DNA of 64,000 nt from Candidatus Bathyarchaeia archaeon (GCA_038882955.1 JAVZNC010000001.1:224001-288000), one strand, 5' to 3'. Positions 24,191-62,050 are shown, counted from the stretch's first letter. Numbers and translations: made by a program. Notes: a model not told the origin generated them from the letters alone.

Positions 24191-25054
24191 TTATTGGCTG
24201 ATAAGTTTGGTTACGTCGTTTGGTTTTTCGGCAACTTTTATTCCTGCCCTCTTAAGTGCTTCAATTTTAGTTTCTGCTGTTCCAGCTTTACCCATTATTA
24301 TCGCGCCAGCATGTCCCATGCGTTTTCCGGGTGGAGCGGAACGTCCGGCTATGTATGCCACTATGGGTTTTGGATAGCTTGTCTTTGCCACGTATTCAGC
24401 CGCTAATTCTTCGAGGTTTCCACCTATTTCACCTATTAAAACAACAGCCTTTGTCTGCTCGTCTTTCTCGAACATCTTTAGAACATCAATGAAGTTTAAA
24501 CCTGTTATTGGGTCTCCGCCAACACCTAGGCATGTGGATTGCCCAAGATTTTTTGCGGTTAAGCCAGCGGCTATTTCATACGTAAGTGTTCCGCTTCTTG
24601 AAACAATCCCGACGTTTCCAGGCTTAAAAATGTGTGACGGCATTATTCCAAGCTTGCTTTCCCTAGGGGTTATTATACCAGGCGTGTTTGGTCCAATTAT
24701 TGTGGCGTTTAACTGTTTTGCGCGTGCCACCATGTTGATTGCGTCTTTTATTGGGATGTGCTCGGTTATTACTACAACTGTTTTTATTCCGTTTTCTAGG
24801 GCTTCCAGAACCGCGTCCGCCGCGAATGGCGCGGGCACAAAGATTATGGCTGCGTTTGCATTATGCTTTTCTTGGGCTTCTTCTCCGCTGTCGTACACTG
24901 GGACTCCATGAATTGTTGTTCCACCTTTTCCTGGAGTAACCCCAGCAAAGATTTTTGTTCCATATTCCAGCATTAGTTTTGTATGAAAGCTTCCTTGCGT
25001 GCCGGTTATTCCCCAAACAACCGCTTTTGTGTCTTTTCCAATTAGTATTCCCAT
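24191..25054 (-). CDS. sucD: Succinyl-CoA synthetase alpha subunit
   Basis: GVTPGKGG, IGPNTPG, SRSGTLTYE, RMGHAGA. Confidence 0.94.
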   Translation of the reverse strand: MGILIGKDTKAVVWGITGTQGSFHTKLMLEYGTKIFAGVTPGKGGTTIHGVPVYDSGEEAQEKHNANAAIIFVPAPFAADAVLEALENGIKTVVVITEHIPIKDAINMVARAKQLNATIIGPNTPGIITPRESKLGIMPSHIFKPGNVGIVSRSGTLTYEIAAGLTAKNLGQSTCLGVGGDPITGLNFIDVLKMFEKDEQTKAVVLIGEIGGNLEELAAEYVAKTSYPKPIVAYIAGRSAPPGKRMGHAGAIIMGKAGTAETKIEALKRAGIKVAEKPNDVTKLISQ

Positions 25055-25055
25055 G

Positions 25056-26204
25056 CTATTTGCCTCCGCTTTTGGCGATTTCAACTACCCTTTGTGCGGC
25101 TTTTTCCATGCTTTCGAGCACGTCTATTCCTGCTTCTGTGAGGATTTTTTTGCCTTCTTCCTCGTTTGTGCCAACAAGCCTAATGACCATGGGTTTTGTG
25201 ACGCTGACCTTTTCTTTTGCTTCTAGGATTCCCTTTGCAACGTCGTCGCAGCGTGTGATTCCGCCGAGTATGTTTATGAAAAGTGCTTTGATGTTTTTGT
25301 CTGATAAGACTATTTGTAGAGCTGCGGCGATTTTTTCTGGTGGTGCTCCGCCGCCAACATCTAGAAAGTTTGCCGGTTTTCCACCATAAACTTGTATTGT
25401 GTCCAATGTTGCCATTACTAAGCCAGCTCCGTTTCCTATTACGCCTATGTCCCCGTCCAATTTGACGTATGCCAAATCGTTTTTCATAGCCTCAATTTCC
25501 TGTGGTGTTAGCTCACCTTCGCCTTCCATGAGCCTCCTTTTGTATTCTGGGTGGCGGAACAACGCATTATCATCAATTATGATTCTTGCGTCTGCTGCAA
25601 CAAATTTTCCGTCAACAGTTTCTATAAGCGGGTTCATCTCGATTAATTCCGCATCGTAATCCATTCCTACGCGATAAAGTTTTTCGAAGAGCCTGCCAAG
25701 CCCTGAAAGTGCACTGCCGCTGTAGCCTATTCTTTTCGCGATTTGGCGGGCTTGAAAGGGATGAAAGCCACGTATTGGGTCTATTGGAAATTTTATGACT
25801 TTTTCGGGTGATTTTTGGGCAACCTCTTCTATTTCCATTCCGCCGACGGCAGACGCAATTGCAACATAGCTTCGAGCGAAACGGTCTATCGTTATGCCAA
25901 AGTAAAGTTCCTTTTTCGTTTGGATTTTTTCCTCAATCCAAACGCTTTTGACTGGTATGCCCTTTATCTGCATACTTAAAAGTTTATCCGTTGCCCGTTC
26001 CGCCTCGTCTACAGAATCGGCGAATAATATTCCGCCGGCTTTTCCTCTTCCAGCAACAAGAACTTGCGCTTTAACAGCGAGTGGTGGTTTTAGTTTGGAT
26101 GCTACTTCGTGGGCTTGGTTCACGCTTGTTGCCAATCCGCCTTGCGGCGTGGGTATTCCAAATTTTGCAAGTATAGCTTTTGCTTCGTACTCGAACAGTT
26201 TCAT
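25056..26204 (-). CDS. sucC: Succinyl-CoA synthetase beta subunit
   Basis: LFEYEAK, GRGKAGG, GNGAGLVMATLD, PANFLDVGGG. Confidence 0.94.
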   Translation of the reverse strand: MKLFEYEAKAILAKFGIPTPQGGLATSVNQAHEVASKLKPPLAVKAQVLVAGRGKAGGILFADSVDEAERATDKLLSMQIKGIPVKSVWIEEKIQTKKELYFGITIDRFARSYVAIASAVGGMEIEEVAQKSPEKVIKFPIDPIRGFHPFQARQIAKRIGYSGSALSGLGRLFEKLYRVGMDYDAELIEMNPLIETVDGKFVAADARIIIDDNALFRHPEYKRRLMEGEGELTPQEIEAMKNDLAYVKLDGDIGVIGNGAGLVMATLDTIQVYGGKPANFLDVGGGAPPEKIAAALQIVLSDKNIKALFINILGGITRCDDVAKGILEAKEKVSVTKPMVIRLVGTNEEEGKKILTEAGIDVLESMEKAAQRVVEIAKSGGK

Positions 26205-26217
26205 TGCGTTGAACCCC

Positions 26218-26676
26218 TCACTTTATTGTTTCTATTGTAACGTACGATTTTGTATCTTGTATCCCATCAATGGCAGATAATTTTTTCAGCACTTCGTCGA
26301 GTTTTTCACCATCAACCATTAAGAGGGCGTCGACATCGCCAGCTATTCTAAAGGCTCTCTGAACAGCTAACTCCTTAACTTTCTCGTAAGCGAGCGTTCT
26401 TTTGTGCGGCAGCACTTTGAGAAGCACGAAGGCTGGGTTAACGGATAAGCCAAGTGCATTTAGTCCCTTCTCTGTTATGTCTATGAAACCTCTCCCAGTG
26501 CGAATATAGTTTAGGTCTCTTAGCTTTCTTAAATGTACGTTTAATGCTTGTCTGCTTATGCCCATCTGTTTCGCTAATGCTTCTTGTTTTACGGAAAGCG
26601 TGTAAGTGCTTGTGGCTTTACCCTTTTCATAAATCATCTTCAACAATTGCAATGAGCGTCTTGTAAGAGCTTCCAT
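26218..26676 (-). CDS. Lrp/AsnC-type transcriptional regulator
   Basis: HTH QEALAKQMGISRQALNVHLRKL plus RAM-like domain. Confidence 0.85.
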   Translation of the reverse strand: MEALTRRSLQLLKMIYEKGKATSTYTLSVKQEALAKQMGISRQALNVHLRKLRDLNYIRTGRGFIDITEKGLNALGLSVNPAFVLLKVLPHKRTLAYEKVKELAVQRAFRIAGDVDALLMVDGEKLDEVLKKLSAIDGIQDTKSYVTIETIK

Positions 26677-27766: not shown

Positions 27767-29086
27767 GTGAAGTTAGATTCTATTGGCGATTGGCGTAGAA
27801 CGCATTATTCCGTGGACGTTAAACCTGAACTGCACGGTTTAGACGTTATTCTTTTTGGGTGGGTTCAGGAGATTAGGGATTTAGGTGGAATTCGTTTTAT
27901 AATATTGCAGGACAGAGAAGGCACCATTCAAATTACGGTTCCAAAGAAAAAGGTTAGCGGCGAAGTGCTGTCGAAGTCTCAAATGCTTCAGAAACGCTAC
28001 AGCATAGGCGTTTTAGGAACAGTGCAGAAAACAGAAATTACGCCCCGCGGCGTCGAAGTAATACCGAAGGAAATTAGGATTTTCAGCACAGCAGCGCCGC
28101 AACTGCCACTGGACATTACGGGTAAAACGCCAGCGAAGCTTGATGTGAGGCTCGACGCTAGAGCGTTGGACTTGTGCAGCGAAGAAAACGTGGCGGTTTT
28201 TAAAATTCAACATGCAGCCGTAGAGGCAATACGGGATTTCCTTTTTGAGAGAGGCTTCATAGAAGTTCACACTCCACGGATTATTGCTTCAGCCACGGAA
28301 GGCGGTGCGGCGCTCTTTTCGGTTGATTATTTTGGCAGGAGAGCCTTCCTAGCCCAAAGCCCACAGTTGTATAAGGAACAGCTTGTCATGAGCCTAGAGA
28401 AGGTTTTTGAAGTGGGTCCATTTTTTAGGGCTGAGGAATCGCATACGCGAATGCACACAAGCGAGTTCGTTTCAATAGACATTGAGCAGGCGTTCGCTGA
28501 CGCTGAGGATGTTATGCAGTTGTTGGAGCAGTTGATTCAGCATGTCTGTAAAGTTGTAAACGAAAAATGTCAGCGCGAATTGGCGACGTTGAAACACAAG
28601 GTTCATGTTCCAGAAGTTCCATTCAAAAGGCTAACCTACAACGACGTTCTTGAAGACTTGAAAAGCGAAGGCGTAGAAATTCCTTGGGGAGAAGACATAC
28701 CAACGCCAGCGCTGCGAACGCTCGGCAAGATTCACCCAACATTCTATTTCATAACAGATTGGCCTACGCATTCAAAGGCTTTCTACATAAAGCCACGTGA
28801 CGAAAAACCAGAGATATGTGATGGTTTCGACTTGATGTGGCGATGGTTGGAACTTGTTTCTGGCGGAACAAGAATTGCAGATAAGGAATTGCTTATAAAG
28901 CGCTTGAAGGAGAAGGGGCTAAACCCAGAATCTTTCAAGCATCACTTGCAAGCTTTTGATTATGGTATGCCGCCACATGCTGGTTGGGCAATCGGTTTGG
29001 AACGCTTAACAATGATGCTGACTGGAAAAAGAAACATTAGGGAAGTTACGCTTTATCCAAGAGACAAGTTTAGGGTAACCCCATAA
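27767..29086 (+). CDS. aspS: Aspartyl-tRNA synthetase
   Basis: OB fold GWV..IRDLG, LAQSPQLYK, FRAE, GMPPHAGWAIGLER. Confidence 0.95.
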   Translation: MKLDSIGDWRRTHYSVDVKPELHGLDVILFGWVQEIRDLGGIRFIILQDREGTIQITVPKKKVSGEVLSKSQMLQKRYSIGVLGTVQKTEITPRGVEVIPKEIRIFSTAAPQLPLDITGKTPAKLDVRLDARALDLCSEENVAVFKIQHAAVEAIRDFLFERGFIEVHTPRIIASATEGGAALFSVDYFGRRAFLAQSPQLYKEQLVMSLEKVFEVGPFFRAEESHTRMHTSEFVSIDIEQAFADAEDVMQLLEQLIQHVCKVVNEKCQRELATLKHKVHVPEVPFKRLTYNDVLEDLKSEGVEIPWGEDIPTPALRTLGKIHPTFYFITDWPTHSKAFYIKPRDEKPEICDGFDLMWRWLELVSGGTRIADKELLIKRLKEKGLNPESFKHHLQAFDYGMPPHAGWAIGLERLTMMLTGKRNIREVTLYPRDKFRVTP

Positions 29087-29769: not shown

Positions 29770-31257
29770 ATAGGGTGCGGAGTGTTCGGGGCTGTAAACT
29801 TCGAAAAACAGCCCATATTCCCATACATTTACTGGGGCATGCGCGCCCAAAACCATAGAGGACATCAGTCACACGGTTTCCTCACATACTATAACGGAAA
29901 ATTCCACACTCACAGAAGCCTAGACCTTATACCAAAAATAAAGACAAGCGCCATACAAGAATGGTTTGGAAGACTGCCCGGACACGTGGGCATAGCAAAT
30001 GTTAGGTACACAACCTCTGGAAAGTCCGATGAAAAATCGCTGATAAAGGGCACACAGCCAGTTACAGCATCAAAAAATGGGTTGAAGTTGGCTATCTCTT
30101 TTAACGGCAACGTGGTGAACACGCTTCACTTGAAAAGGGAAATATGTGAAACATTCCCGAAATTTTCCTACGAATGCGACGCCGACCTAATTTGCCACAA
30201 GCTGCTAATTGAACTAATGAAAGGTAAAGAGTTGGAGTCAGCCGTCGAAAACTGCATGCATGAAGTTGAAGGCGCATTTTCAGTTGCTGGAATAACGAAA
30301 GATGGCAGGTTCTTCGCATTTAAAGACCCGTATGGGATAAGACCACTATGCGCAGGTCACAGCCAAGACAAAAAAACATACGCTTTCTCGTCTGAAACCG
30401 TTGGGTTGGACATAAACGGCTTCGAAAAAGACTTCGAAATTGAACCAGGAGAACTTGTAACCGTTTCGGAAAGCGGCTTTAACCGACAAAAGCTCGTGGA
30501 TGGAAAATGTAGGGCGCTATGCGCCTTTGAGTTTGCATATTTTGCGAGACCAGATTCATCCTTTGATGAAAAATACGTTTACGAAGTGCGCGAAGAGTTT
30601 GGAAGAAACCTTGTTAGGGAAAACCCGGATATAGTTAAGGATGCGGACATAATCATTTCAATGCCAGAAACAGGCGACGACGCAGCAATGGGAGTTCACG
30701 AAGCCTCTGGGTTAAGATGGGAAAGAGCCTCGCGCAGACACAGATACGTGACGGAAAGAGCATTCATACTGCTTAACAAGGAGCGCTATGAAACAATAGA
30801 CAAGAAAATCAACATTTTAGCATCAAAAGTTAGGGGAAAACGCATCATAATAACCGAAGACAGCATCGTAAGAGGCGACACAACAAGAGTTGTCATCGAA
30901 AAGCTTCGCAGAATGGGCGCCAAAAAAGTCTACTTGTTCGTGACTTTCCCACGAATAATTGGACCATGCTTTTACGGAATCGACATGGCAACATACGGAC
31001 AACTGATAGGCTCAAAACACACGGCTGAAGAAATCGCGAAAATTATAGGCGCGGACGCCGTGCGCTATCAGTCGATGGAAAATTTTGTAAAAGCCACAGG
31101 CTTTTCAAGAGACCAGTTATGTTTAGGATGCGTGACTGGAAAATATCCAACGCCACTAGCGCAGAAGATAGCTGATGAGATGAGGAAGAGGTTCTTGGAG
31201 GGCTACGAGGAGACTGGAAGGCTCTACGAGATAATTGAAGCCCTAGAAGGAACGTAA
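29770..31257 (+). CDS. purF: Amidophosphoribosyltransferase (probable ATA start)
   Basis: QNHRG, NVRYTTSG, CAFEFAYFARPDS, EDSIVRGDT, CFYGID; N-terminal GCGVFG lies upstream of the GTG at 29782. Confidence 0.92.
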   Translation: MGCGVFGAVNFEKQPIFPYIYWGMRAQNHRGHQSHGFLTYYNGKFHTHRSLDLIPKIKTSAIQEWFGRLPGHVGIANVRYTTSGKSDEKSLIKGTQPVTASKNGLKLAISFNGNVVNTLHLKREICETFPKFSYECDADLICHKLLIELMKGKELESAVENCMHEVEGAFSVAGITKDGRFFAFKDPYGIRPLCAGHSQDKKTYAFSSETVGLDINGFEKDFEIEPGELVTVSESGFNRQKLVDGKCRALCAFEFAYFARPDSSFDEKYVYEVREEFGRNLVRENPDIVKDADIIISMPETGDDAAMGVHEASGLRWERASRRHRYVTERAFILLNKERYETIDKKINILASKVRGKRIIITEDSIVRGDTTRVVIEKLRRMGAKKVYLFVTFPRIIGPCFYGIDMATYGQLIGSKHTAEEIAKIIGADAVRYQSMENFVKATGFSRDQLCLGCVTGKYPTPLAQKIADEMRKRFLEGYEETGRLYEIIEALEGT

Positions 31258-31309
31258 CAACAAAATATGATTTTAAGCCAAATCTTATACATTAAGTGAA
31301 GGGAACATT

Positions 31310-32719
31310 ATGGAAAAGGTTGGCGTGCTCGCTGTCTCCTACGGCGCGAGAGAGACATCCATAATCGACGCCTTTGCGCGCAGCCTAAAATACAAAGTGG
31401 AAATTTATGTGGCTGACAAACAGAAAAACCCCTTTAACATTGAAAGGGCGAAAGAACACGTTGTCATACCAGACTTGAACGTGGAGGAAATCTGCAAATT
31501 TGCAGAGAAAAACAAAGACAAGATAGACTTTGGAATTGTGGGTCCGGAAAAGCCAATAATAGATGGTGTCCGCGACATGGTTGAGAAGCGAACTGGCATA
31601 CCGATGATTTGTCCAACAAAGGAATGCGCAATTGAAGCAAGCAAAGTTAAACAGCGCCTACTATTCGACGAAATTGCGCCAGAGGTGAACCCACGCTTCA
31701 AAATTTTCAACCCAAAAGATTATGGGAGCCAAGAAGAAGCCAAAAAAGAACTTTACAAGTGGCTTGACGAGCTTGATAATATGGCAGTTGTGAAGCCAGA
31801 TTTGCCAGCTGCTGGAAAAGGCGTAGGCGTGTGGGGCGACCACTTCACAAGCCGCGAGCAGCTCCTAGAACACTTTTTTGCGAACTTTCAGCATGGCGCA
31901 GTAATAGTTGAAGAAAAAATTGATGGCGAAGAATCAAGCTTTCAGGCTTTCTGTGACGGAAAACATCTCGTGCCCCTGCCAGACACTAGGGATTACAAAC
32001 GTGCTTTCGACGGGGATAAGGGACCAAACACTGGCGGGATGGGCTCATACAAGGACAAGGACGAAAAGTTGCCGTTTATGACAACAGCAGAGCGGAAAAG
32101 AGAAATTGAAACTGTAAAAAGGATTTTTGAAGGATGGAAGGTGAAGGATAAAACGGCTTTGAGGGGAATACCATTCTACGTTGCTTTCATGCACACCGGC
32201 AAAGGCTTGAAGATTCTCGAAAACAACAGCAGACCAGGAGACCCAGAAATAATCAACATCATGCCGATAATTAAAGAGGATTTCGTGGACGTCTGCCTCA
32301 AAATTTTGGACGGCAACCTAACAAGCGTCGCGCTGGATGAAGCTGCAACAGTTGTCACCTACAAGGTTCCGCCAAACTACGGCGGCTACGCGGACGCATT
32401 TCCAAAAAATGTAAAAAAGGATGAAATTGACACGCCCGTTGACTTAACAGAAGCGTATAGGCTAAGAGAAAAGTATGGGGAGCAAATCCGCATTTATCCA
32501 GCCTCTGTGGAACTTCGTGGAGGCAAAATTTACGCTCTTAAATCTAGGGCTGTTGCCGTTGTTGGCATAGGCGAAAACATTGAAGAGGCTAGGAAAATTT
32601 CAATAGAGGGAATTAATGCGATAAAGGGCGGAGCGCTTTGGCATAGAAGAGACATAGCCTCAAAAGAGCATATTGGAAAAAGTGTTAGGCATATGGAGGA
32701 GTTGAGGAGCAAACGGTGA
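31310..32719 (+). CDS. purD: Phosphoribosylamine-glycine ligase
   Basis: YGARE, VGPE, AAGKGV, DYKRAFDGDKGPNTGGMGSY, RPGDPE. Confidence 0.92.
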   Translation: MEKVGVLAVSYGARETSIIDAFARSLKYKVEIYVADKQKNPFNIERAKEHVVIPDLNVEEICKFAEKNKDKIDFGIVGPEKPIIDGVRDMVEKRTGIPMICPTKECAIEASKVKQRLLFDEIAPEVNPRFKIFNPKDYGSQEEAKKELYKWLDELDNMAVVKPDLPAAGKGVGVWGDHFTSREQLLEHFFANFQHGAVIVEEKIDGEESSFQAFCDGKHLVPLPDTRDYKRAFDGDKGPNTGGMGSYKDKDEKLPFMTTAERKREIETVKRIFEGWKVKDKTALRGIPFYVAFMHTGKGLKILENNSRPGDPEIINIMPIIKEDFVDVCLKILDGNLTSVALDEAATVVTYKVPPNYGGYADAFPKNVKKDEIDTPVDLTEAYRLREKYGEQIRIYPASVELRGGKIYALKSRAVAVVGIGENIEEARKISIEGINAIKGGALWHRRDIASKEHIGKSVRHMEELRSKR

Positions 32720-33789
32720 AAAGAGTTTTTGTGTCTGACTGCGAAGGACCCATATCAAAAAATGATAATGCTTTTGAAATAACAGCCCATTACGTGCCAA
32801 ACGGAGAACACTTTTTTACTGTTATAAGCCGTTATGACGACGTTTTGGCATACGTCTTGAAAAGGAGAGGCTACAAGGCTGGAGACACTTTAAAGCTTAT
32901 TTTGCCATTCCTTAGGGCTTACGGCGTAACGGATAGGAAAATGCACGAATTTTCAGCAAGAAGTTTAGTTTTAATTCCAAAAGCAAGAGAAATGCTACGC
33001 CATGCAAGAGGGCTAGCCCACGCTTTCATCGTGAGCACAAGCTACGAGCATTACGTAAGGGCGCTGTGCAAAGCCGTTGAATTTCCGTTCAGAAACACAT
33101 ATTGTACAAGGCTGAAAATCAGCAAATACCACATAGTAAAGAATGAGAAAAAGCGGCTTATAGAGTTGGCAAAGGAAATCGCACAGATGCCAATAATCGA
33201 GATTCCAGAATACGCCAAATCGCTGGAAGATTTCCCAATGGAACATCGCGAAACTGTTTTGCGTTTGGATGAAATCTTTTGGAAAGAAATAGCGCGTATG
33301 GAGTCTGGAAGATTTCTTCACGAGGTTAATCCAGTTGGCGGCGTGGAGAAAGCAGAAGCAATAAGAGATGCTGTGAAAAGGGTTGGCGCGAGATTGTCAG
33401 ATGTAATGTATGTGGGCGACAGCATAACAGACATGGAAGCCTTCAAACTTGTGAAAGAAAATGGCGGTTTAACCATTTCATTTAACGGCAACAGGTACGC
33501 CGTGGAAAACGCTGAAATTGCAATTCTATCCAACCACTGTACGCCAACAGCAATAATCGCCGAATTATTCACTCGCTTCGGAAAGGAACAAACGTTAAAA
33601 ATTGTGGAGCATTGGAGTTTCGAATCCTTGAAACAAGCAGGAATAAGTTCAACCCTAATCGAAAACCTCCTAAAGCTTGATTTGCCCAAAGTTAAAATAA
33701 TGACAGAAGAAAATATTGAGGCTCTAGCGAGAGAAAGCAGCCAATTTAGGAAAAAAGTTAGGGGAGAAGCCATAGGAAGGTTGGGTTAG
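32716..33789 (+). CDS. HAD-superfamily protein (COG4030/EhaR-like)
   Basis: SDCEGPISKNDNAFE, VSTSY, K, YVGDSITD, SFNGN. Confidence 0.8.
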   Translation: MKRVFVSDCEGPISKNDNAFEITAHYVPNGEHFFTVISRYDDVLAYVLKRRGYKAGDTLKLILPFLRAYGVTDRKMHEFSARSLVLIPKAREMLRHARGLAHAFIVSTSYEHYVRALCKAVEFPFRNTYCTRLKISKYHIVKNEKKRLIELAKEIAQMPIIEIPEYAKSLEDFPMEHRETVLRLDEIFWKEIARMESGRFLHEVNPVGGVEKAEAIRDAVKRVGARLSDVMYVGDSITDMEAFKLVKENGGLTISFNGNRYAVENAEIAILSNHCTPTAIIAELFTRFGKEQTLKIVEHWSFESLKQAGISSTLIENLLKLDLPKVKIMTEENIEALARESSQFRKKVRGEAIGRLG

Positions 33790-33792
33790 AAA

Positions 33793-34704
33793 ATGACTGT
33801 AAAAACTAAAATTGAAGATACGTATGCAGAGGCTTTCGCGGGTATATACACAAGATTAATCGTCACGGCGGATGATGCGGAAATACTGCGGAAGGCAGCG
33901 GAAGACGCAACTGCGACACCGTCCATTGTTATTGGGCGGGTTGAGGGCGGAATAGAAAAGTGGCTAAACGAAAAAGAAACGCCAGACAAACGCAAAGGAG
34001 CGCTACTTCAGTTTTGGGGCGGAATAGACCCTAAAAAGCCCTTTTCAGACTCCCTAAAGAAGTTTGAAGTTGAGCTTTCCTATAGAATTAGGCAGGACAT
34101 CCTCGTTAAGCCATTCACCGCAATTTTTGACGCAACGCCGAACGCAGAAGGAAAAATCGACATGATGGAACGCGTCGGACACTGCGGAGACGGATATGAA
34201 TGGGTTGAGAAGCGTTATGGACGTGAAGTAATAGTTGTGCCAATAATGGTTCCAGACTTCATAATTGAACGCCAAATTGGATACGCCAAAGGTGTCATGG
34301 GAGCAAACTTCTGGATAATGTGCAAAACAAAAGAGGCGCTAAAGGAGGCTTCTGAAAAGGCTTTAGAAGCAATAAGCACTGTGGAAGGCGTTATAACGCC
34401 ATTCGACGTTTGTTCTGCTGGCTCAAAACCAGAGACGCGTTTTCCATGGATAGGACCAACAACAAACCATCCTTACTGCCCATCACTAAAAGAAAAAATT
34501 GGAAGAGAATCGAAAGTGCCGGAAGGCGTCAACTACATTCCAGAAATAGTGATTAACGGCATAATGATGGAGGCTGTTAAAAAGGCGATGAAGGCTGGAA
34601 TAGAAGCGGTTCTTAACGTTGATGGTGTTGTTAAGGTTTCGGCTGGAAATTATGGCGGAAAGCTTGGCGAATACAAGATTTATTTGCGTGAGTTGTTTAA
34701 ATGA
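33793..34704 (+). CDS. ftr: Formylmethanofuran-H4MPT N-formyltransferase family protein
   Basis: [49 protein letters not shown]. Confidence 0.88.
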
Positions 34705-35615
34705 GTCGCTTTGACGTTGTGGGCTTCGGAGCCCTAAACGTTGACAAACTTTTCAGAGTCAACAAAATAGCTGGTGCAGAAGAAGAAGGCTTCATAAAAG
34801 ACTGCGAAGAAACATGCGGAGGCTCAGCAGCAAACACTATTGTTGGTTTGGCGAGACTTGGATGCAAAACTGGCTTTGTCGGAAAAGTTGCTGACGATAG
34901 GGAGGGTAGAATGCTAATCGAAGACTTTCATAGAGAAGGCGTGGATACGAACGGTATAATACATGCGAAAGGTGGAAGAAGCGGGGCAGTGATGGGATTC
35001 GTCGACGAAAAGGGCGAAAGAGCCTTATACGTTGACCCAGGCGTGAACGACACAATAGAGTTTAGCGAAGTAAACAAGGAATACGCGTTCAACACACAAT
35101 TCTTGCATTTAACATCCTTTGTCGGCAAAAAATCCTTCCAAACCCAAAAAAGGCTAACCGAAATCTTGCCAGAAAACATTAAAGTGAGCTTCGACCCTGG
35201 AGAACTCTATGCAAGAAAAGGTTTAGTCGCGCTCGAACCGATAATAAGACGAACCTTTGTTTTGATGCCGAACCAGAGAGAAATCGAACTCTTAACTAAG
35301 GCGAAAGATTACAAAAAAGGCGCTGAAATTCTGTTGGAGAAAGGCGTTAAAATAGTTGCTGTTAAGCTTGGCAGCAACGGTTGCTATGTAACTGATGGAA
35401 AAGAAAATCACCATGTAGACAGATTTAACGTTAAGGTTGTGGACACAACTGGTGCTGGAGACGCTTTCTGCGCGGGGTTCCTATACGGCTTGATTAATGG
35501 AAAAAGCCTATACGAGTGCGGAAGACTCGGCAATTTTGTGGCTTCAAGATGCATAATAAAAATGGGCGCAAGAACGGGGCTTCCACGCGTTAAGGATTTA
35601 GAAGTTCTTGGTTAG
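34701..35615 (+). CDS. PfkB-family carbohydrate/nucleoside kinase
   Basis: [16 protein letters not shown]. Confidence 0.92.
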
Positions 35616-36416
35616 GTATTCAATTAAGCCTTCAAAGATTAGTTTTCCATCGCCATATTGCGGCATCTGCCTTTGCCTAGTCCAGTCTGGATGCTGCCAC
35701 CAGTAGAAGGCTCTTTCTGGGTGCGGCATCAAACCAAATATTGTTCCTTCCGGGTTGCATATCCCAGCAATATCGTGAAAAGAGCCGTTTGGGTTTGTTG
35801 GAAAACGTCCATCAGCATATTCGCCGCCTTCGTCGCAGTAGCGGAAAACAAGTTGGTCATTCTCGCAAAGTTTCTCCAAGAAACGCTTCTCTTTTTCTTT
35901 CGGGAATAGGAAACGCCCTTCAGAATGTGCAACTGGCATACGCAAGACTTTGCCATGTGGAATTTTTTGCGTAAATATGCATTTGCCCTTTCCTTCGTGT
36001 TTAAGGTAAATCCACCGACAATTATAACCAGGCGGAAGGTTAGTTGCCAAAGAAGCCTCTGGGTATTGACTTATTCCATTAAAGCCTGGCAGCAATCCAG
36101 CCTCAACGAGGACTTGGAAGCCATTGCATATTCCCAAAATTGGACGATTTTCCTTAACAAACTCCCTTAACTCCCTATCGAGCTTTGCTATCAACCACTT
36201 AGCCCAAATGGCGCCAGCCCTCACATAATCACCATAAGAAAAACCACCGGGAAAAACCAACGCGTGATAATCGAGTAGACTTTTGCGCTTTATAACTTCG
36301 TTCGCGTGAACCACTTCGGCTCTAACGCCTAAATCTTCAAAGGCTCTTTTGGTTTCAGCGTCGCAGTTTGTTCCGCCAACACGTAAAACGCAAACGCGAA
36401 TCTTTTCCCTTTTCAT
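35598..36416 (-). CDS. purQ: FGAM synthase subunit PurQ
   Basis: GTNCD, GGFSYGDY, GICNGFQ, MPHPER. Confidence 0.95.
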   Translation of the reverse strand: MKREKIRVCVLRVGGTNCDAETKRAFEDLGVRAEVVHANEVIKRKSLLDYHALVFPGGFSYGDYVRAGAIWAKWLIAKLDRELREFVKENRPILGICNGFQVLVEAGLLPGFNGISQYPEASLATNLPPGYNCRWIYLKHEGKGKCIFTQKIPHGKVLRMPVAHSEGRFLFPKEKEKRFLEKLCENDQLVFRYCDEGGEYADGRFPTNPNGSFHDIAGICNPEGTIFGLMPHPERAFYWWQHPDWTRQRQMPQYGDGKLIFEGLIEYLTKNF

Positions 36417-36417
36417 T

Positions 36418-38799
36418 TTAGGCACCACTGCTCAGCGGGCTTTTCCAGCTTGCCAACAAATCCTTAAGCGACGCATCAACAACGACATCGCCGTCCAAAC
36501 CATAAATGCACAGTCGCGGAGTCTTTGTGACCTTGCCGATTTCCGCAAAAACTTTTCCATGCATAAGCTTTTCAAATTCCTTTTTAGCTTCTTGCGAAAC
36601 CTCAACCAAGAAGCGACTGTTAGACTCCGAAAAAAGTATGAAATCATTACGGCTGATACCTTCAACTGGAACTTTACGCAAATGCAACTCCATTCCATAA
36701 CCGCCTGAAAAAGCCATCTCCACAGCTGCAACAGCCAAACCGCCCTCTGAAAGGTCATGACAAGACCTTATCAATCCCAAATCAATAGCCCTAGAAATCG
36801 CTCTGAAAGTCTTTCTGGCTTGAGAAGCCCTAACCTTCGGCACGTTTTTCCCAGTGAAGCCTTTAAGCCTATAATATTCCGAACCGCCCAACTCCCTGAA
36901 GGTTCTGCCAACAATGTAGATTACGTTGTTAGGCTCCTTAACATCCATCGAAACTGCAAGACGTATGTCAGGAATAATACCCAAAGCAGTTATCAAAAGC
37001 GTAGGCGTTACAGGTCCAAGAGGTGACTCGTTATAGAGGCTGTCCTTTCCAGAAATAAAAGGCGTTCTAAAAGCCTTGGCAAAATCGTAACACGCCTCAC
37101 AAGCCCTAACGAGGCTGCCAAGCCTTTCGGGTTTTTCTGGGCTCCCCCAGGTGAAATTGTCAAGCAACGCTATGCGCCTTCCGCCAACAGCAACATTATT
37201 TCTTACTGCTTCGTCTATCGCTGAGGCTGCCATCCAATAAGTGTCAATCTTACCATAATTCGGATTCATCCCACATGAAATTACCAAACCCTTCCAAGAA
37301 TTTTCCAAAGGTTTTATTATCGAAGCATCACTTGGTCCGCCATACTTGCCATGCAACGGCTTAAGCACAGTATTTCCTTTCACTTCATGGTCATAAGTTC
37401 GGATTACGCTTTCTTTGCTTGCAATGTTGGGCGAGGACAAAAGTTGTAGAAGTGTTTCTGTTAGGCCCTTTGGTTCTGGAAATTTTGGCTCTTCGCCTTC
37501 TATGGGCTTGTATTCAGCGGTTCGCACAACCATCGGCGGCTCGAATAGGAATGGAATGTCTATTTCAGCCACTTTCTTGCCTTTATAATAAATTCGTAAA
37601 ATCTTGTCATCAGTGTATTTCCCAATAGCCGTAGCTTCAACATCCTCGCTTCCGAAAATCTCCATAACCTTTTCAAGGTTCTCAGGAGGAACAATCAAAA
37701 GCATTCTTTCCTGCGACTCAGAAATGTAGATTTCCCAAGGTGCCAAACCTGCATACTTAAGCGGAACCTTATCAAGCTCGACAACTGCTCCGCAGCCAAA
37801 CCTCTTCGCGGTTTCGCCAACAGCAGAAGATAAGCCGCCACCGCCCAAATCCGTTATTGCAGAGGCAAGCTCAAAATCCCTTATTTGAATTATAGCCCTC
37901 TTAAGCTTCTCCTCTTCAATTGGATTTGCAATTTGAACCGCTGGTCTAGAAATTTCCTCGGACTTCTCAGTTAACTCAGTAGAAGCAAAAGTGACACCGT
38001 GAATACCGTCGCGACCAGTTTTGCCGCCAGCCAAAACAATAATGTCGTTAGGCTTGGCATTCCGCTTAAACTTCCTCAGCGGAAGCAAACCGACGCATCC
38101 ACAATAGACAACGACGTTTCCAACGTAACTCTCATCAAAGTAAATAGCCCCGTTAACCGTGGGAATACCCATGTTATTCCCATAACATCCGATACCAGCA
38201 ACAACACCCAAATACACATATTTTGGATGCTTAACCCCTTGAGGAAGCCGCCTATAATCAAAATCTAGTGGACCAAAGCCTAATACATCAGTGCATGCAA
38301 TTGGGTCAGCCCAAACACCCAAAATATCGCGGATTACACCGCCAACACCAGTGGCGGCGCCACCAAAAGGCTCAATAGCAGAGGGGTGGTTATGTGTTTC
38401 AACTTTTACGGCTATGCCGTAGCCCTTGTCAAAATGGACTATGCCCGCGTTATCCTCAAAGACGGAAAAACACCAGCGCGGCTTTAATTCTTCAGTGGCT
38501 TTCGCAATGTATGTTTTAAAGAGACTGTTGATTTCTTTCCCGTTGAATATTATTTTACCCTTAAAAGTTTTGTGAAAACAATGTTCAGACCATGTTTGCC
38601 CTATGGTTTGAAGCTCAACATCCGTCGGGTTCCGTCCCTTACGCCTAAAATATTCCTGAACTGTTCGCATCTCCTGCAGATTTAATCCTATTCCAAGCTC
38701 TTGGCTTATGCTTAAAAGCTGCTGGTCGCTAGCCTCAAGAATATTTATTTCAAAAAGTGAAAAGGCTGTTTCTCTGCGAATATAGAGATTCGCCTTCAT
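36418..38799 (-). CDS. purL: FGAM synthase subunit PurL
   Basis: WSEHCFHK, ETHNHPS, DLGGGGL, SESQERM, HDLSEGGL. Confidence 0.96.
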   Translation of the reverse strand: MKANLYIRRETAFSLFEINILEASDQQLLSISQELGIGLNLQEMRTVQEYFRRKGRNPTDVELQTIGQTWSEHCFHKTFKGKIIFNGKEINSLFKTYIAKATEELKPRWCFSVFEDNAGIVHFDKGYGIAVKVETHNHPSAIEPFGGAATGVGGVIRDILGVWADPIACTDVLGFGPLDFDYRRLPQGVKHPKYVYLGVVAGIGCYGNNMGIPTVNGAIYFDESYVGNVVVYCGCVGLLPLRKFKRNAKPNDIIVLAGGKTGRDGIHGVTFASTELTEKSEEISRPAVQIANPIEEEKLKRAIIQIRDFELASAITDLGGGGLSSAVGETAKRFGCGAVVELDKVPLKYAGLAPWEIYISESQERMLLIVPPENLEKVMEIFGSEDVEATAIGKYTDDKILRIYYKGKKVAEIDIPFLFEPPMVVRTAEYKPIEGEEPKFPEPKGLTETLLQLLSSPNIASKESVIRTYDHEVKGNTVLKPLHGKYGGPSDASIIKPLENSWKGLVISCGMNPNYGKIDTYWMAASAIDEAVRNNVAVGGRRIALLDNFTWGSPEKPERLGSLVRACEACYDFAKAFRTPFISGKDSLYNESPLGPVTPTLLITALGIIPDIRLAVSMDVKEPNNVIYIVGRTFRELGGSEYYRLKGFTGKNVPKVRASQARKTFRAISRAIDLGLIRSCHDLSEGGLAVAAVEMAFSGGYGMELHLRKVPVEGISRNDFILFSESNSRFLVEVSQEAKKEFEKLMHGKVFAEIGKVTKTPRLCIYGLDGDVVVDASLKDLLASWKSPLSSGA

Positions 38800-39047
38800 T
38801 TTTCCTCCTCAACATGAATTATGTAATTATCCTTTGTTGGATTCGCCAAAAGCCGCTTACACATCTCCTCTGCCCTTAACATAGCGTCTCGCTTCGAGTC
38901 AGCATCAAGAATTACAGTATAAACTTTGCTTACGCCTACGCTTCCAACGTTAAAGCCAAGCTCCCTTAACAAACGCGCTGTGGTTTCGCCTTCGGGGTCA
39001 CTGTGGCCAGGTTTTAGGCATACCTCGATTCTTAAACAGTATTTCAT
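38796..39047 (-). CDS. purS: FGAM synthase subunit PurS
   Basis: LKPGHSDPEG, LLANP. Confidence 0.92.
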   Translation of the reverse strand: MKYCLRIEVCLKPGHSDPEGETTARLLRELGFNVGSVGVSKVYTVILDADSKRDAMLRAEEMCKRLLANPTKDNYIIHVEEEK

Positions 39048-39103: not shown

Positions 39104-40183
39104 TTACTTCAAGACTATCTTCTTACTCTTATAGTGAACTTTTATGCCGCCAGAACCCGTTATAAAACCAATTTGCTCGCTTTCAACACCAGCCCGCTCC
39201 AAGATGCCTATTGCCTTATCCAAGTCTGTTTTATCCACAATTATTGCGAAACCCCAACCCATGTTGAAGGTCTTGAACATTTCATCATCAGCTATTTTGC
39301 CGCCCAACACAACAGCAGTTTTCTGAATAAGCTCGAAAATCGGTTGAGGCTTAAAATTGGTAAACTCGAAACCTATACCTTTAGAAAACTTCTGCAGATT
39401 GCCAAATTTTAGGTAGGCGTCTCCCGTGATGTGAACAGCAGCCTTAACCCTAACATTTTCAGCAACCCTAAGTAAAGGCTTAACATAAATCTTCATTGGC
39501 TCCAAAACCTCGTAAACGATTTCCCTCTCGAAGCCATCAGGAACATCAAAGGGCTCATATTTTCCACCCCAACACTTAAAGAGAATTTTCCTCGCCAAAG
39601 TAACGCCATTGCTGTGAATGCCAGAACTGCGCATACCAACTATAGCGTCGCCAGGCTTTATGTCCCTGCCATAGATTATTTTATCATCAGCAACCTCGCC
39701 AACCGTCGCAACAACTAAATCAAAACCCTTACCCTCAACCAAACCCCTTATGACCTCAGCGACATCACCAATCTCACCACTAGGCACAACACACTCACTT
39801 TCCAAAGCGCCCCGAGTTATGCCCTTCAACAACTCACCAATCAACTCTGGGTCAGAAACCTGCGCATGAATATTATCCGCAATCGCCAAAGGCTTAGCAC
39901 CAGACCTTATGACGTCATTAACAGCCAATGCAACAGCATCAACCCCAATAGTATCATACTTCCCAGCCAACTGCGCAACAAGAACCTTCGAGCCAACACC
40001 CTCAACAACAAAATCCAAATAACGACCATCACCTATAGGAAAAATGTTCCCATAGGGAAGATGAACAACATTCCCATAACAACTAAACTTGTAAGTATCC
40101 CTCAAAAACCGCAGCATCCTCTTAGACCTAGCTCTAACCGCCCTATTAACACCAACCCTTGCGTAAGTAAACTCCCGAACCAT
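39104..40183 (-). CDS. purM: AIR synthetase
   Basis: YARVGV, EGVGSK, SSGIHSNG, HITG, TFNMGWG; start set at MVREF. Confidence 0.93.
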   Translation of the reverse strand: MVREFTYARVGVNRAVRARSKRMLRFLRDTYKFSCYGNVVHLPYGNIFPIGDGRYLDFVVEGVGSKVLVAQLAGKYDTIGVDAVALAVNDVIRSGAKPLAIADNIHAQVSDPELIGELLKGITRGALESECVVPSGEIGDVAEVIRGLVEGKGFDLVVATVGEVADDKIIYGRDIKPGDAIVGMRSSGIHSNGVTLARKILFKCWGGKYEPFDVPDGFEREIVYEVLEPMKIYVKPLLRVAENVRVKAAVHITGDAYLKFGNLQKFSKGIGFEFTNFKPQPIFELIQKTAVVLGGKIADDEMFKTFNMGWGFAIIVDKTDLDKAIGILERAGVESEQIGFITGSGGIKVHYKSKKIVLK

Positions 40184-40279
40184 CTTTAACAGTCCTCTCA
40201 AACGTAGATATATGAATAAACACTTGCAGTATATAGCAATTTCAACCCTAAACCAAAACCCTAGGCATAAAACAAGAGG

Positions 40280-40344
40280 GGGCAAGCGGAATCTATGGAG
40301 ACCGAAAGGAGAAGGGAGGAAAAACTTTGATGTCCCGCTTGCCC
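40280..40344. repeat. 10-bp inverted repeat with a 45-nt loop
   Basis: GGGCAAGCGG (40280-89) / CCGCTTGCCC (40335-44); U-rich tail on the minus strand. Confidence 0.6.
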
Positions 40345-40749
40345 TTACCTCCATTGACTTAACTTAGAATGTTGCGGATCTTGCTCTGTAATATAAGTAG
40401 CTGCAACATGCGCATCGTTCTTTATTTCTTTTAATCGCAAAATGATATTTAACAAAACACGATATTGTTTTAGAAAGTTAATTCCTTCGGCACTGGTTTT
40501 ATAAAAAACGCGTCCGTTAACTATGTGAACTTCGATTAAACGCATTTTGATAAGAACACGTAAATACTGTTTTAATTGAGTATAGTTAATATTCGCGTAA
40601 TTAGCAATTGAAAATCTGGTCACGTACTTATCGCGGGCATCCTCAAGAATTAGGGATACTATTTCAAAATGGCTTCTATGTTTTTTACCGAAATTCACAT
40701 GCTTAGATGCCGCATCTTTGCAAGCGAACATTACCAAACGCCACACCAT
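40345..40749 (-). CDS. Winged-helix DNA-binding protein (COG3432-like)
   Basis: RSHFEIVSLIL..ANINYTQLKQYL..YKTSAEG. Confidence 0.75.
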   Translation of the reverse strand: MVWRLVMFACKDAASKHVNFGKKHRSHFEIVSLILEDARDKYVTRFSIANYANINYTQLKQYLRVLIKMRLIEVHIVNGRVFYKTSAEGINFLKQYRVLLNIILRLKEIKNDAHVAATYITEQDPQHSKLSQWR

Positions 40750-41539: not shown

Positions 41540-43144
41540 TTGACTGAAAAAATATACGTCGTGTTTGAGATAGCACTGCTTGCTGCGATATTTTTAACAA
41601 ATATCGATTCGGTGACTTTTGCCAATCCTAAAACAAACACAAATACATGGATAGTAGCTAAAGACGGTACGGGAAATTTCAGCACAATTTACGAAGCTGT
41701 ATCAAATGACAACGTATCTACTGGTGATGTAATTTTTGTACGAACAGGATTATACGCTGAAAACCTAGTTATCAGCAAGAGCATATCTTTAATCGGAGAA
41801 GATCCAGACTCAACAATAATATGTGGTGATGGTGTCAAGAGTGTTATCCACATAAACGCTGACGATGTCAAAATCATAAACTTTACCATCACTGGAAGTG
41901 GTACACTGCTATCGCATAGCGCCATATATGTTAATAGTTCCAGTCGAATTACAATAAGCTACAATAAAATAACAGGTAACAACAATGGAATCAGTCTTTT
42001 TTCTTCGGTTGATGATCTGATTTTGGGTAACACTATTAAAAATAACAGTCTCTATGGTATTTTTTCCGCAGCTTTACGCAATAGTTCAATTATCAACAAC
42101 ACTATTATAAATAACGGAAAAGGCATCGTCTTTTATACATCAACAGACAATTACATTGTAAGCAACACTATTAAGAACAGTGCTTCAGAGGGAATTTATC
42201 TCTACACTTCTAGCGATAATGTTATTTACCATAATAATTTCCAGAATACGCAACAAGCGTGGAGTGATGCGCCAAATATTTGGGATTACGCTGGTGAGGG
42301 AAATTATTGGAGTAACTATAAAGGTTCAGACTTCTACAAAGGTTTATACCAGAATGAAACGGGTAGTGATGGTATAGGTGATGAACCATATATTATTGAT
42401 AAATACAATTATGATCACTTTCCGCTTATGGGTACATGTTTGCTTTACGATATTAACTTTGAAGCTGAAAATTATCAACTAATCTTAATCAGCAATTCAA
42501 CGATTTCGAATTTTAGTTTCAGAGTTAGCATGGAAACCGGAAACAAAGTGATAAGTTTTAATGTTGTTGGGGACGATGATAGCGTTGGTTTCTGTAGAGT
42601 CTCTATTCCGACACAGCTTATGAATTATACCATCATCATACTTGTGGACTATGAAGAAGTTGCTCCAGCATTATTGAGCTCCACAGAAACATATATGAAC
42701 ATCTATTTCGCCTATACTCAAAGCATTCATACCGTTACAATGATTTCTTCAAGAACTTTAGCTCTCTACAGCGCCCTTCTTGCTGAGCATATACAACTAC
42801 AAGAAAAATTTAGCAGCTTAAATGCATCTTATTATGAACTATTAAACAATACTTTGTCGCTGCTAACTCTTTACGACGCCCTTCTTGCTGAGCATATACA
42901 ACTACAAGAAAAATTTAGCAGCTTAAATGCATCTTATTATGAACTATTAAACAATACTTTGTCGCTGCTAAATGATTATCAACAGCTCAGGAATAACTAT
43001 ACAGAGTTATACAATTTTTACAGTGAACTTTTACGAAGACACAATGAGAATTCGCAGAATATCCAAGCTTTAGTATATGCTTTCATAACTGCGATAACAA
43101 TCTTTACGGCGGTCACCATTTATTTATCAAAACAACATGTGTAA
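41540..43144 (+). CDS. Surface protein: NosD/right-handed beta-helix, coiled-coil stalk, C-terminal TM
   Basis: Signal peptide, GIxLxxSxxNxIxxNxI repeats, GNYWSNY, DGIGDEPY..DHFPLM. Confidence 0.85.
   Translation: MTEKIYVVFEIALLAAIFLTNIDSVTFANPKTNTNTWIVAKDGTGNFSTIYEAVSNDNVSTGDVIFVRTGLYAENLVISKSISLIGEDPDSTIICGDGVKSVIHINADDVKIINFTITGSGTLLSHSAIYVNSSSRITISYNKITGNNNGISLFSSVDDLILGNTIKNNSLYGIFSAALRNSSIINNTIINNGKGIVFYTSTDNYIVSNTIKNSASEGIYLYTSSDNVIYHNNFQNTQQAWSDAPNIWDYAGEGNYWSNYKGSDFYKGLYQNETGSDGIGDEPYIIDKYNYDHFPLMGTCLLYDINFEAENYQLILISNSTISNFSFRVSMETGNKVISFNVVGDDDSVGFCRVSIPTQLMNYTIIILVDYEEVAPALLSSTETYMNIYFAYTQSIHTVTMISSRTLALYSALLAEHIQLQEKFSSLNASYYELLNNTLSLLTLYDALLAEHIQLQEKFSSLNASYYELLNNTLSLLNDYQQLRNNYTELYNFYSELLRRHNENSQNIQALVYAFITAITIFTAVTIYLSKQHV
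42762..42971 (+). repeat. 105-bp tandem duplication (35 aa, five heptads)
   Basis: 42772-42866 is identical to 42877-42971. Confidence 0.93.
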
Positions 43145-61800: not shown

Positions 61801-61829
61801 CCTTACGCCACTCCATCTATTTTAATGCA

Positions 61830-61892
61830 GTAGAAGCTATCAGCCCCTGCGAATGCAGAAGCAAGGGCGGTTAAAGGCGAGCTTCATCGCCT
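61830..61892 (-). ncRNA. Fluoride riboswitch (crcB motif)
   Basis: Minus strand AGGCGATGAAGCTCGCCT-TTAACC-GCCCTTGC..GCAGGGGC-TGATAGCTTCTAC: P1 GGCGA/TCGCC, P2 8 bp, pseudoknot GAAGCT/AGCTTC, conserved GATG, AACCGC, GCTGAT and CTAC. Confidence 0.9.
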
Positions 61893-61956
61893 ATGTTTAG
61901 GCGAAATGCAAAACTAACAAATAAACGTTATGAAAAACAAATGAAAAATTGATTAA

Positions 61957-62050
61957 CGGGCCCGCCGGGATTTGAACCCGGGATCTCCGGCTTAGAAGGC
62001 CGACGCGCTTTGTGGAATTGGCTTTTCTATCCATGCTGCGCCACGGGCCC
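61957..62050 (-). tRNA. tRNA-Arg(TCT) with a non-canonical intron in the D-loop (about 62009-62027)
   Basis: Acceptor GGGCCCG/CGGGCCC, D-stem GCGC/GCGC interrupted by 17-19 extra nt, anticodon loop CT-TCT-AA, T-arm CCGGG-TTCAAAT-CCCGG. Confidence 0.92.

Follow-up and report, generated by a model that had tools for sequence, protein, structure and literature searches.

An Ftr paralogue in a purine operon of Bathyarchaeia as the best candidate for step 3 of archaeal purine synthesis

In a stretch of 64,000 nucleotides from the genome of a Candidatus Bathyarchaeia archaeon (GCA_038882955.1, JAVZNC010000001.1:224001-288000; this whole stretch, C1:224001-288000 in our numbering, is hereafter called the window), a paralogue of the formyltransferase Ftr is encoded within an operon for purine synthesis. 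We propose that this protein, Ftr2 (a clade name taken from Chadwick 2022), takes the place of PurN or PurT in converting glycinamide ribonucleotide (GAR) to formylglycinamide ribonucleotide (FGAR), step 3 of the pathway, in archaea that carry one-carbon units on tetrahydromethanopterin (H4MPT). From the comparative evidence, we put the probability of this reading at roughly two in three. The best reading of the data is that Ftr2 would be a third, non-homologous GAR formyltransferase; it would extend a known enzyme family to a new function, and it is the best candidate for archaeal purine step 3. The genomes compared here demonstrate the identity of the paralogue, its position in the operon, its phyletic complementarity with PurN and PurT, its displacement in situ by a PurN-family gene and its independence of Fwd. 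The acceptor would be GAR, the donor would be formyl-H4MPT, and two partners encoded in the same operon, a HAD-fold protein and a PfkB-family kinase, may also have a role.

An earlier, sequence-only reading of the locus described the order purF-purD-HAD-ftr-pfkB, with the last four genes overlapping or 3 nt apart and the whole converging on purQLSM. Open reading frames and domain matches agree with this description. The genes, with window coordinates and strand, are as follows.

29782-31257, + strand: purF, amidophosphoribosyltransferase, step 1 (TIGR01134, 310 bits, below the cut-off of 350; GATase_6/7 domains)
31310-32719, + strand: purD, GAR synthetase of a divergent subtype, step 2 (GARS_N, GARS_A and GARS_C; TIGR00877, 269 bits, below the cut-off of 288)
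32716-33789, + strand: HAD-fold protein of the AF1437/"EhaR" type, candidate phosphatase, 357 aa (HAD Pfam matches)
33793-34704, + strand: Ftr2, Ftr paralogue, proposed GAR formyltransferase, 303 aa (PF01913 and PF02741)
34701-35615, + strand: PfkB-family (ribokinase-like) kinase of the "EhaT" type, 304 aa (PF00294, 189 bits)
35598-36428, - strand: purQ, glutaminase subunit, step 4 (NF002252, 319 bits, above cut-off)
36418-38799, - strand: purL, step 4 (TIGR01736, 687 bits, above cut-off)
38796-39047, - strand: purS, step 4 (TIGR00302, 67 bits, above cut-off)
39104-40354, - strand: purM, step 5 (TIGR00878, 237 bits, at cut-off)
40345-40749, - strand: winged-helix protein (Sso10a-like), possible regulator of the purine genes (PF14947, NF053610)

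Ftr2 is translationally coupled to its neighbours: it starts 3 nt after the HAD gene, which itself overlaps purD by 4 nt (GTGA), and it overlaps the PfkB gene by 4 nt. The convergent PfkB gene and purQ share 18 nt at their 3′ ends, and the start of purM and the winged-helix gene overlap by 10 nt.

The presence of Ftr2 is complementary to that of PurN and PurT. The sequence-only reading had proposed an anti-correlation with purN/purT, and we found it to be strong in two separate phyla, with 47 of 48 PurD-encoding carriers of Ftr2 in one and 55 of 57 carriers in the other having neither gene. The first sample comprises 121 genomes of the class that are at least 85% complete, in which carrier status requires a best match of 50% identity or more; there are 51 carriers (one of them with an incomplete Ftr2 where its contig stops), 55 genomes with canonical Ftr only and 15 with neither. 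Among the carriers that encode PurD (n = 48), none has a PurN above cut-off and none has a PurT-like protein, the sole exception to the absence of both being a sub-threshold PurN-like gene in G115. Among the PurD-encoding non-carriers (n = 56), 14 have a PurN above cut-off, 53 have any PurN-like or PurT-like gene, and three have neither. The second sample consists of 141 genomes that are at least 90% complete and belong to a second phylum, reached through the closed chromosome behind locus L092. Here, 57 genomes carry Ftr2, at 51 to 75% identity; two of them (G133 and G144) have PurN, none has a strong PurT and 55 have neither. The 84 non-carriers of this phylum include 72 with PurN, 12 with a strong PurT (10 of them without PurN) and two with neither. 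Fisher's test gives P = 9e-25 for the class and P = 4e-34 for the second phylum, values that are descriptive only. Because families f11 and f22 of the class each contain both states, there has been more than one switch between them. The nine ATP-grasp matches from both samples were sorted by NCBIfam models; the "PurT-like" match of G001, a possible exception, is PurK and was rejected as such, and the match of G091 (family f17) is a true PurT.

Displacement of Ftr2 in place is seen in G027, a genome without Ftr2 in which the gene order is purF-purD-Formyl_trans_N (330 aa)-HAD-PfkB-FolD. This operon has exchanged its formyltransferase fold and gained a folate-type cyclohydrolase (FolD) while retaining HAD and PfkB. 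In six other genomes (G002, G010, G032, G035, G085 and G109), a Formyl_trans_N gene lies immediately 3′ of purD. The protein of G027 and other divergent Formyl_trans_N proteins retain the catalytic Asn-x-His and Asp in our alignment, and we therefore rejected the possibility that they are dead enzymes. More generally, a divergent Formyl_trans_N subfamily of 270 to 330 aa, scoring below the PurN cut-off and with "NLHPA" or "NVHPA" where the usual motif tail would be, is found directly after purD in Bathyarchaeia; in G085, a canonical PurN and FolD are arranged in tandem with the divergent copy. Members of the subfamily are located at the following positions.

L093, 7799-8635: divergent Formyl_trans_N
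L094, 7341-8333: divergent Formyl_trans_N
L095, 8928-9767: divergent Formyl_trans_N
L096, 6186-7001: divergent Formyl_trans_N

In its phylogeny, the window gene belongs to a clade of old paralogues that is sister to canonical Ftr. The protein spans both Ftr lobes (PF01913, 152 bits, residues 4-151; PF02741, 201 bits, residues 154-301) and scores above the cut-off of NF002554 (357 bits; cut-off, 297) and below that of the Ftr/FhcD equivalog TIGR03119 (244.6 bits; cut-off, 292.6). Our tree of 84 sequences (50%-identity representatives, the Bathyarchaeia loci and the second phylum) comes from a quick IQ-TREE search with support from the Shimodaira-Hasegawa-like approximate likelihood-ratio test (SH-aLRT) only. 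Grouped in the Ftr2 clade (47 rows, SH-aLRT 95) are the window copy and, without exception, the "high-identity" copies of the two phyla; the canonical clade (33 rows, SH-aLRT 99), which is its sister, includes the other copy of this genome and all 18 "low-identity" copies. In this tree, which contained no characterised sequence, Ftr2 falls outside the group of copies that co-occur with Fwd. By alignment, the solved Ftr enzymes are 37 to 40% identical to the window Ftr2.

The two clades share 35 conserved positions. The catalytic Glu of Ftr2 is E251, part of an EIVING motif; this residue does not vary in any of three clade alignments, and both clades conserve it. By the motif and by alignment to 1m5s, we equate it with Glu252 of FhcD, given as the oxyanion-stabilising active-site residue in the available text of Hemmann 2019. 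Specific to Ftr2 are a 5-residue insert with an invariant Trp75, Cys131 (Phe in canonical Ftr) and Pro222 (Ala in canonical Ftr); Gly129, Trp174 and Gly221 are also conserved in Ftr2. A short signature (QxW, GHCGDG, IGPT, PEIVING) distinguishes Ftr2 from the canonical clade. We found the Ftr2 signature in all of ten named proteins from Methanonatronarchaeum, Ca. Methanohalarchaeum, Methanocellales, Syntropharchaeia, Altiarchaeota and Hydrothermarchaeota, which are 49 to 59% identical to the window copy and 31 to 39% identical to the canonical copy.

Independence of Ftr2 from Fwd emerges from the second phylum. FwdA is present in 114 of its 141 genomes and in 53 of the 57 carriers of Ftr2. The four carriers without FwdA (G137, G148, G158 and G202) also lack canonical Ftr and make up four of the five carriers with a single Ftr match. 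Because they keep Ftr2 and no canonical Ftr, it is canonical Ftr that goes with Fwd, and Ftr2 is independent of it. In G137, Ftr2 adjoins purM, and in G158, it lies near purF; the proteins of these two genomes bear the names Methanonatronarchaeum sp. and Ca. Methanohalarchaeum. According to the available text of Ferrer 2018, M. thermophilum is without Mtr and Fwd, and its proteome contains Mer, Mtd, Mch and an "Ftr" that the authors could not connect to its metabolism. We found that this "Ftr" carries the Ftr2 signature.

The retention of Ftr2 in the absence of FwdA favors N5-formyl-H4MPT over formyl-methanofuran as the donor. The sequence-only reading had suggested that an Ftr paralogue formylates GAR, or supplies the formyl donor, from a methanofuran or pterin carrier; its main inference is well supported by the comparisons made here, which, of the two carriers, favor the pterin over methanofuran. 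The simplest reading would be an anabolic line from methylene-H4MPT to methenyl-H4MPT, N5-formyl-H4MPT and finally GAR, and Mch is present in 45 or 46 of the 51 carriers in the class. We hypothesize that the canonical Ftr reaction has been redirected to another primary amine, so that the formyl group would move from N5-formyl-H4MPT to the glycinamide amine of GAR via the conserved active-site Glu. The donor would come from the Mch reaction, or else from formyl-methanofuran through canonical Ftr, and PurLQS would consume FGAR with ATP, pulling the transfer forward. For the transfer of a formyl group from formyl-H4MPT to a furfurylamine, Hemmann 2019 gives, in the text available, a cost of just +4.4 kJ/mol. 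HAD and PfkB belong to this module as two conserved, putatively accessory partners.

The gene arrangement around Ftr2 is not due to chance. A search with a 5-sequence alignment yielded 80 loci from different species-level genomes whose Ftr2 is at least 74% identical, and we counted neighbours by tblastn (E-value threshold 1e-10; query coverage of 50% or more). PfkB is present, downstream of Ftr2, in 73 loci, HAD in 68, purD in 62 and purF in 58; the HAD-Ftr2-PfkB trio is present in 66 of the 80 loci, the trio with purD in 60, and at least one pur gene in 74. Several of the absences in these counts reflect contig ends. A homologue of the winged-helix protein (35 to 50% identity) occupies an equivalent position in 23 of the 80 loci, by the tabulated matches.

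A few loci depart from this arrangement. In L028, L031 and L064, Ftr2-PfkB occurs without the upstream purF-purD-HAD, and in L028 and L064 the region upstream of Ftr2 matches the purB region of this genome (contig 5). In L086, L089, L090 and L092, Ftr2 stands alone, with neighbours just 25 to 38% identical to this genome. These four loci and L105 to L108 contain copies of Ftr2 from one lineage of the second phylum that are 70 to 75% identical to Bathyarchaeia copies and nested inside them in the tree; the contig of L089 carries a bacterium label. The unrelated neighbours of the four loci, together with their nested position, fit horizontal transfer of Ftr2 alone into another lineage. The purD genes linked to the module mostly score 175 to 270 bits on TIGR00877, and those of most genomes with PurN or PurT score 300 to 505 bits; an exception is G025, which has a canonical-type purD together with the HAD-Ftr2-PfkB trio.

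The gene content of the genome itself (1.54 Mb, 31 contigs, 95.6% complete) is to be read together with that of its relatives. Among the protein matches, all 120 listed show 81% identity or more, and those that carry a name are from Bathyarchaeia. The sequence-only reading had noted that PurN and PurT are lacking locally, and the whole-genome search likewise returned zero TIGR00639 (PurN) matches and, for PurT, only weak ATP-grasp matches (at most 36.6 bits, with a cut-off of 502); none of the five operon proteins matches PF00551 (Formyl_trans_N). The same whole-genome search of this assembly did not find PurE, PurC, PurP, PurH, PurO, ThiC, Mch or FwdA; PurB is present. PurE, however, is present in 111 of the 121 class genomes, including all 14 other members of the same family, and Mch in 100 of the 121, including 13 of the 14. 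Because both genes are nearly universal in relatives, their absence here is an assembly gap rather than biology, and any single-gene absence in this assembly means little without the relatives. Steps 1, 2, 4 and 5 of purine synthesis are indeed present, as the sequence-only reading stated, but this set is not to be taken as a truncated pathway, since the remainder is missing from this assembly alone. A pathway ending at aminoimidazole ribonucleotide (for thiamine or cobamide) is ruled out by the frequencies of PurE and Mch in the class, and the presence of two Ftr copies in a Fwd-less and Mch-less organism was rejected as biology because the assembly is gappy.

The sequence-only reading had also asked whether a second ftr lies near fwd or mch. 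A canonical copy exists on contig 4 (TIGR03119, 397 bits; 39% identical to the window Ftr2), where it adjoins aRF1 rather than fwd or mch. All three points on which that reading might have failed thus came out in its favor: PurN and PurT were not found, a second ftr is present and the synteny is conserved.

HAD and PfkB look catalytically competent from their motifs. Across 33 HAD sequences from two phyla, conservation reaches 93% or more at D8, S107/T108, K212 and G234-D-S-x-x-D239. Two residues past the nucleophile D8 (motif D8-x-E10), the conserved residue is a Glu, where Asp is the usual HAD residue. In 22 PfkB sequences, N13, D15, G40-G41, E194 and T250-G-A-G-D254 are conserved. We take the roles of these residues from ribokinase structures, presumably as the GG motif, the Glu of NxxE, the catalytic Asp of TGAGD and the ribose-binding N-terminal Asn and Asp. 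The best NCBIfam models for PfkB are ribokinase (TIGR02152, 167.5 bits versus a cut-off of 299.65) and ribose-1-phosphate kinase, and all 25 models listed are below cut-off. The sole solved relative of HAD, 1y8a, is AF1437 from Archaeoglobus fulgidus, which was deposited under the description "hypothetical protein"; automatic naming gives the label EhaR to an Atlas cluster of HAD relatives.

HAD also tracks Ftr2 across genomes. In the second phylum, a HAD orthologue (28 to 40% identity) is found in 53 of 57 Ftr2 carriers versus five of 84 non-carriers. Four of these five have a lower-scoring PurN (179 to 198 bits). The fifth is G253, in which HAD, FwdA and a canonical-type Ftr are present (loci L143 and L158) and Ftr2, PurN and PurT are not; its assembly may be incomplete. 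HAD and PfkB are adjacent in nine of 20 HAD loci, including those of G137 and G158 in the second phylum. HAD, PfkB and Ftr2 are contiguous in G154, and in seven genomes HAD lies 0.6 to 3 kb from Ftr2. A prediction of a complex of HAD, PfkB and Ftr2 (from our own alignments of 34 rows each) gave a score of 0.00 in two runs made without controls.

Exchange between nucleotide and riboside forms, the role that the sequence-only reading suggested for the HAD protein and the kinase, would be compatible with the gene order and with the intact catalytic motifs. A bypass of this kind is possible, although we regard it as doubtful: HAD would strip the 5′-phosphate from GAR, Ftr2 would formylate the neutral glycinamide riboside with N5-formyl-H4MPT as the donor, and the PfkB kinase would re-phosphorylate only the formylated riboside, giving FGAR. 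Such a bypass would cost one ATP per turn, the same as PurT, and would make irreversible a near-equilibrium transfer from a low-potential methanopterin carrier. One lineage that lacks HAD, and HAD-PfkB pairs that occur where Ftr2 is absent, speak against its being obligatory. If true, the bypass would explain why HAD tracks Ftr2 genome-wide and why the HAD-PfkB pair accompanies a divergent PurN-like gene and FolD in G027. The "unconnected" Mer-Mtd-Mch-Ftr of methyl-reducing methanogens would then be an anabolic formyl supply line, and the "EhaR/S/T subunits" would be purine enzymes. The discrepancies in labelling discussed in the available text of Brown 2011, which calls some of these results inconsistent, would also follow, since C8 would come from the methanopterin one-carbon pool, whatever feeds that pool.

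Several observations weigh against the proposal that Ftr2 formylates GAR. Three PurD-encoding class genomes without Ftr2 (G039, G048 and G089) lack all three enzymes, and two second-phylum genomes without Ftr2 (G230 and G253) likewise lack PurN and PurT. In addition, 29 of the 43 PurN-like genes of the class are below the TIGR00639 cut-off, and four PurT-like proteins of families f11 and f12, which have no PurK match, are divergent (246 to 271 bits, below cut-off). Ftr2 and PurN occur together in G133 and G144, and the available text of Chadwick 2022 also places Ftr2 alongside PurN in the anaerobic methanotrophic (ANME) archaea ANME-2a and -2b; the mutual exclusion is therefore incomplete, and Ftr2 may have some additional role. 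The second-phylum counts take all genomes regardless of PurD, and the Fisher values overstate the case because related genomes are not independent. In that phylum, a pur gene lies near Ftr2 in just three of 20 loci, the others being amid housekeeping genes, and housekeeping genes were all that we found among the conserved Ftr2 neighbours there. According to the available text of Brown 2011, formyl-H4MPT is not believed to be a formyl donor, a statement that concerns the N10 form. Finally, a role in step 9, the formylation of 5-aminoimidazole-4-carboxamide ribonucleotide (AICAR) by PurP or PurH, has to be weighed.

That last point leads to the explanation that survives best after our own, in which Ftr2 would act in purine synthesis without being a GAR transferase, by formylating AICAR, by serving both steps or by handing the formyl group over to a carrier or partner. 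We consider it unlikely. PurP and PurH were not found in this genome, the co-occurrence of HAD and PfkB with Ftr2 implies that other catalysts belong to the module, and G133 and G144 have both Ftr2 and PurN; yet the missing PurP and PurH carry little weight in an assembly that also lacks the purE, purC and mch found in its relatives. The complementarity, moreover, is specific to PurN and PurT, and Ftr2 fills the slot right after the purD region where relatives have a PurN-family gene. ANME-1, in the available text of Chadwick 2022, has PurH2 and lacks PurN and PurT.

Less probable still is that HAD-Ftr2-PfkB acts on another ribosylated amine or on a cofactor (in methanopterin or methanofuran synthesis, or in purine-riboside salvage or repair), with a regulatory or otherwise indirect link to purines. 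The HAD-PfkB pair without Ftr2 in five second-phylum genomes would fit such a role, as would the one lineage (G130, G141, G152 and G162) with Ftr2 and no detectable HAD, the ribokinase and ribose-1-phosphate kinase models that best match PfkB, and the co-transcription of Ftr-like and ribokinase-like genes with a hydrogenase operon in Methanothermobacter (Kaster 2011, in the text available). It leaves unexplained, however, why carriers lack PurN and PurT and why Ftr2 is replaced by a PurN-family gene in the same operon.

It is very improbable that Ftr2 is an ordinary second formylmethanofuran:H4MPT isoenzyme whose distribution reflects a methanopterin-only lifestyle, with GAR formylated by another enzyme: the fold, the catalytic Glu, the 35 shared conserved positions, the NF002554 score above cut-off, the FwdA of 53 of 57 carriers and the location of most second-phylum copies away from pur genes would suit such an enzyme, but lifestyle alone is insufficient for the ten genomes of the phylum that have FwdA, canonical Ftr and PurT and no Ftr2, and the four FwdA-negative carriers that keep Ftr2 after loss of the canonical copy, the in-situ displacement by a PurN-family gene and the clade-specific conserved residues and insert all argue against it.

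Outside the purine genes, the window contains the following flanking genes.

24191-26204, - strand: succinyl-CoA-ligase-like alpha and beta subunits
26218-26676, - strand: Lrp/AsnC regulator
27767-29086, + strand: class II aminoacyl-tRNA synthetase of the Asp/Asn/Lys type
41540-43144, + strand: NosD-like beta-helix protein

The flanking set also includes a KH protein, and none of these genes is tied to the HAD-Ftr2-PfkB module. Farther away, the window contains a fluoride riboswitch (crcB motif; 61824-61900, - strand; 50 bits, above the gathering score) and a weak and partial tRNA-like match (61965-62009).

If Ftr2 is a GAR formyltransferase, a gap would be closed that dates from Brown 2011. 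In the available text of that study, PurN and PurT were not found in two Archaeoglobi, Methanopyrus kandleri and four "Methanomicrobiales", the last being named as Methanothermobacter, Methanosphaera and Methanobrevibacter. ANME-1 joined the list later: the available text of Chadwick 2022 reports PurN and PurT to be lacking in ANME-1, Archaeoglobales and Methanobacteriales. A separate section of the same text, unconnected with the former, reports Ftr2 in ANME-1, ANME-2a, ANME-2b, Archaeoglobales, M. kandleri and Methanothermobacter. We found no publication tying Ftr2 to purine synthesis in a search of full-text literature, a body of text outside which most subscription journals and supplements lie. 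The proposal would add a third unrelated class of GAR formyltransferase, on the Ftr fold, and, contrary to the usual assumption, methanopterin-bound formyl groups would feed purine synthesis directly. It would also give a function to genes annotated as a "second Ftr" or as Eha hydrogenase subunits and would explain why Mer, Mtd, Mch and "Ftr" are kept and expressed in methyl-reducing methanogens without Fwd and Mtr. In the source names for Bathyarchaeia, Altiarchaeota, Hydrothermarchaeota and other metagenome-assembled genomes, Ftr2 is labelled as canonical Ftr. This naming inflates inferences of Wood-Ljungdahl or methanogenesis-type one-carbon metabolism, and the annotation would be corrected if our proposal is true.

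Among known systems, the closest to Ftr2 is its sister, canonical Ftr (EC 2.3.1.101; 1ftr/2fhj/2fhk, 1m5h and 1m5s), with which it shares the two-lobe fold, both Pfam domains, about 40% identity and the catalytic Glu. In contrast to canonical Ftr, Ftr2 belongs to a separate clade below the equivalog cut-off, has the Trp insert, Cys131 and Pro222, is encoded in a purine operon, persists without Fwd and has a distribution complementary to that of PurN and PurT. The Ftr fold is also seen in FhcD, from the formyltransferase/hydrolase complex of bacteria (6s6y), with a 109-bit match to the window protein, and in the available text of Hemmann 2019 it works in the direction that we propose for Ftr2, from formyl-H4MPT to a primary amine. 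Unlike Ftr2, however, FhcD works as one subunit alongside FhcABC, in a complex that has a bound methylofuran; the window contains no Fhc or Fwd genes, and the proposed acceptor of Ftr2 is GAR.

The two established enzymes of step 3 resemble the proposed Ftr2 in role rather than in fold. PurN (EC 2.1.2.2) makes the same product, FGAR, and occupies the same slot after purD, but it has the unrelated Formyl_trans_N fold and uses 10-formyl-tetrahydrofolate as the donor. PurT fills the step in methanopterin-using archaea without folate, according to the available text of Brown 2011, and its distribution is complementary to that of Ftr2; it differs in its ATP-grasp fold and in its use of free formate and ATP. 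Finally, the eha operon of Methanothermobacter ends with Ftr-like and ribokinase-like genes that stand side by side and are co-transcribed with it, and the available text of Kaster 2011 doubts their annotated functions. This "EhaR-EhaS-EhaT" set is like the trio described here in having an Ftr-like gene beside a ribokinase-like one, and the cluster of HAD relatives bears the name EhaR; the membership of the Methanothermobacter genes in Ftr2 is taken from the tree in the available text of Chadwick 2022 and not from our own. Unlike that set, the trio of the window has no hydrogenase genes nearby and is flanked by purF and purD on one side and by purQLSM on the other.

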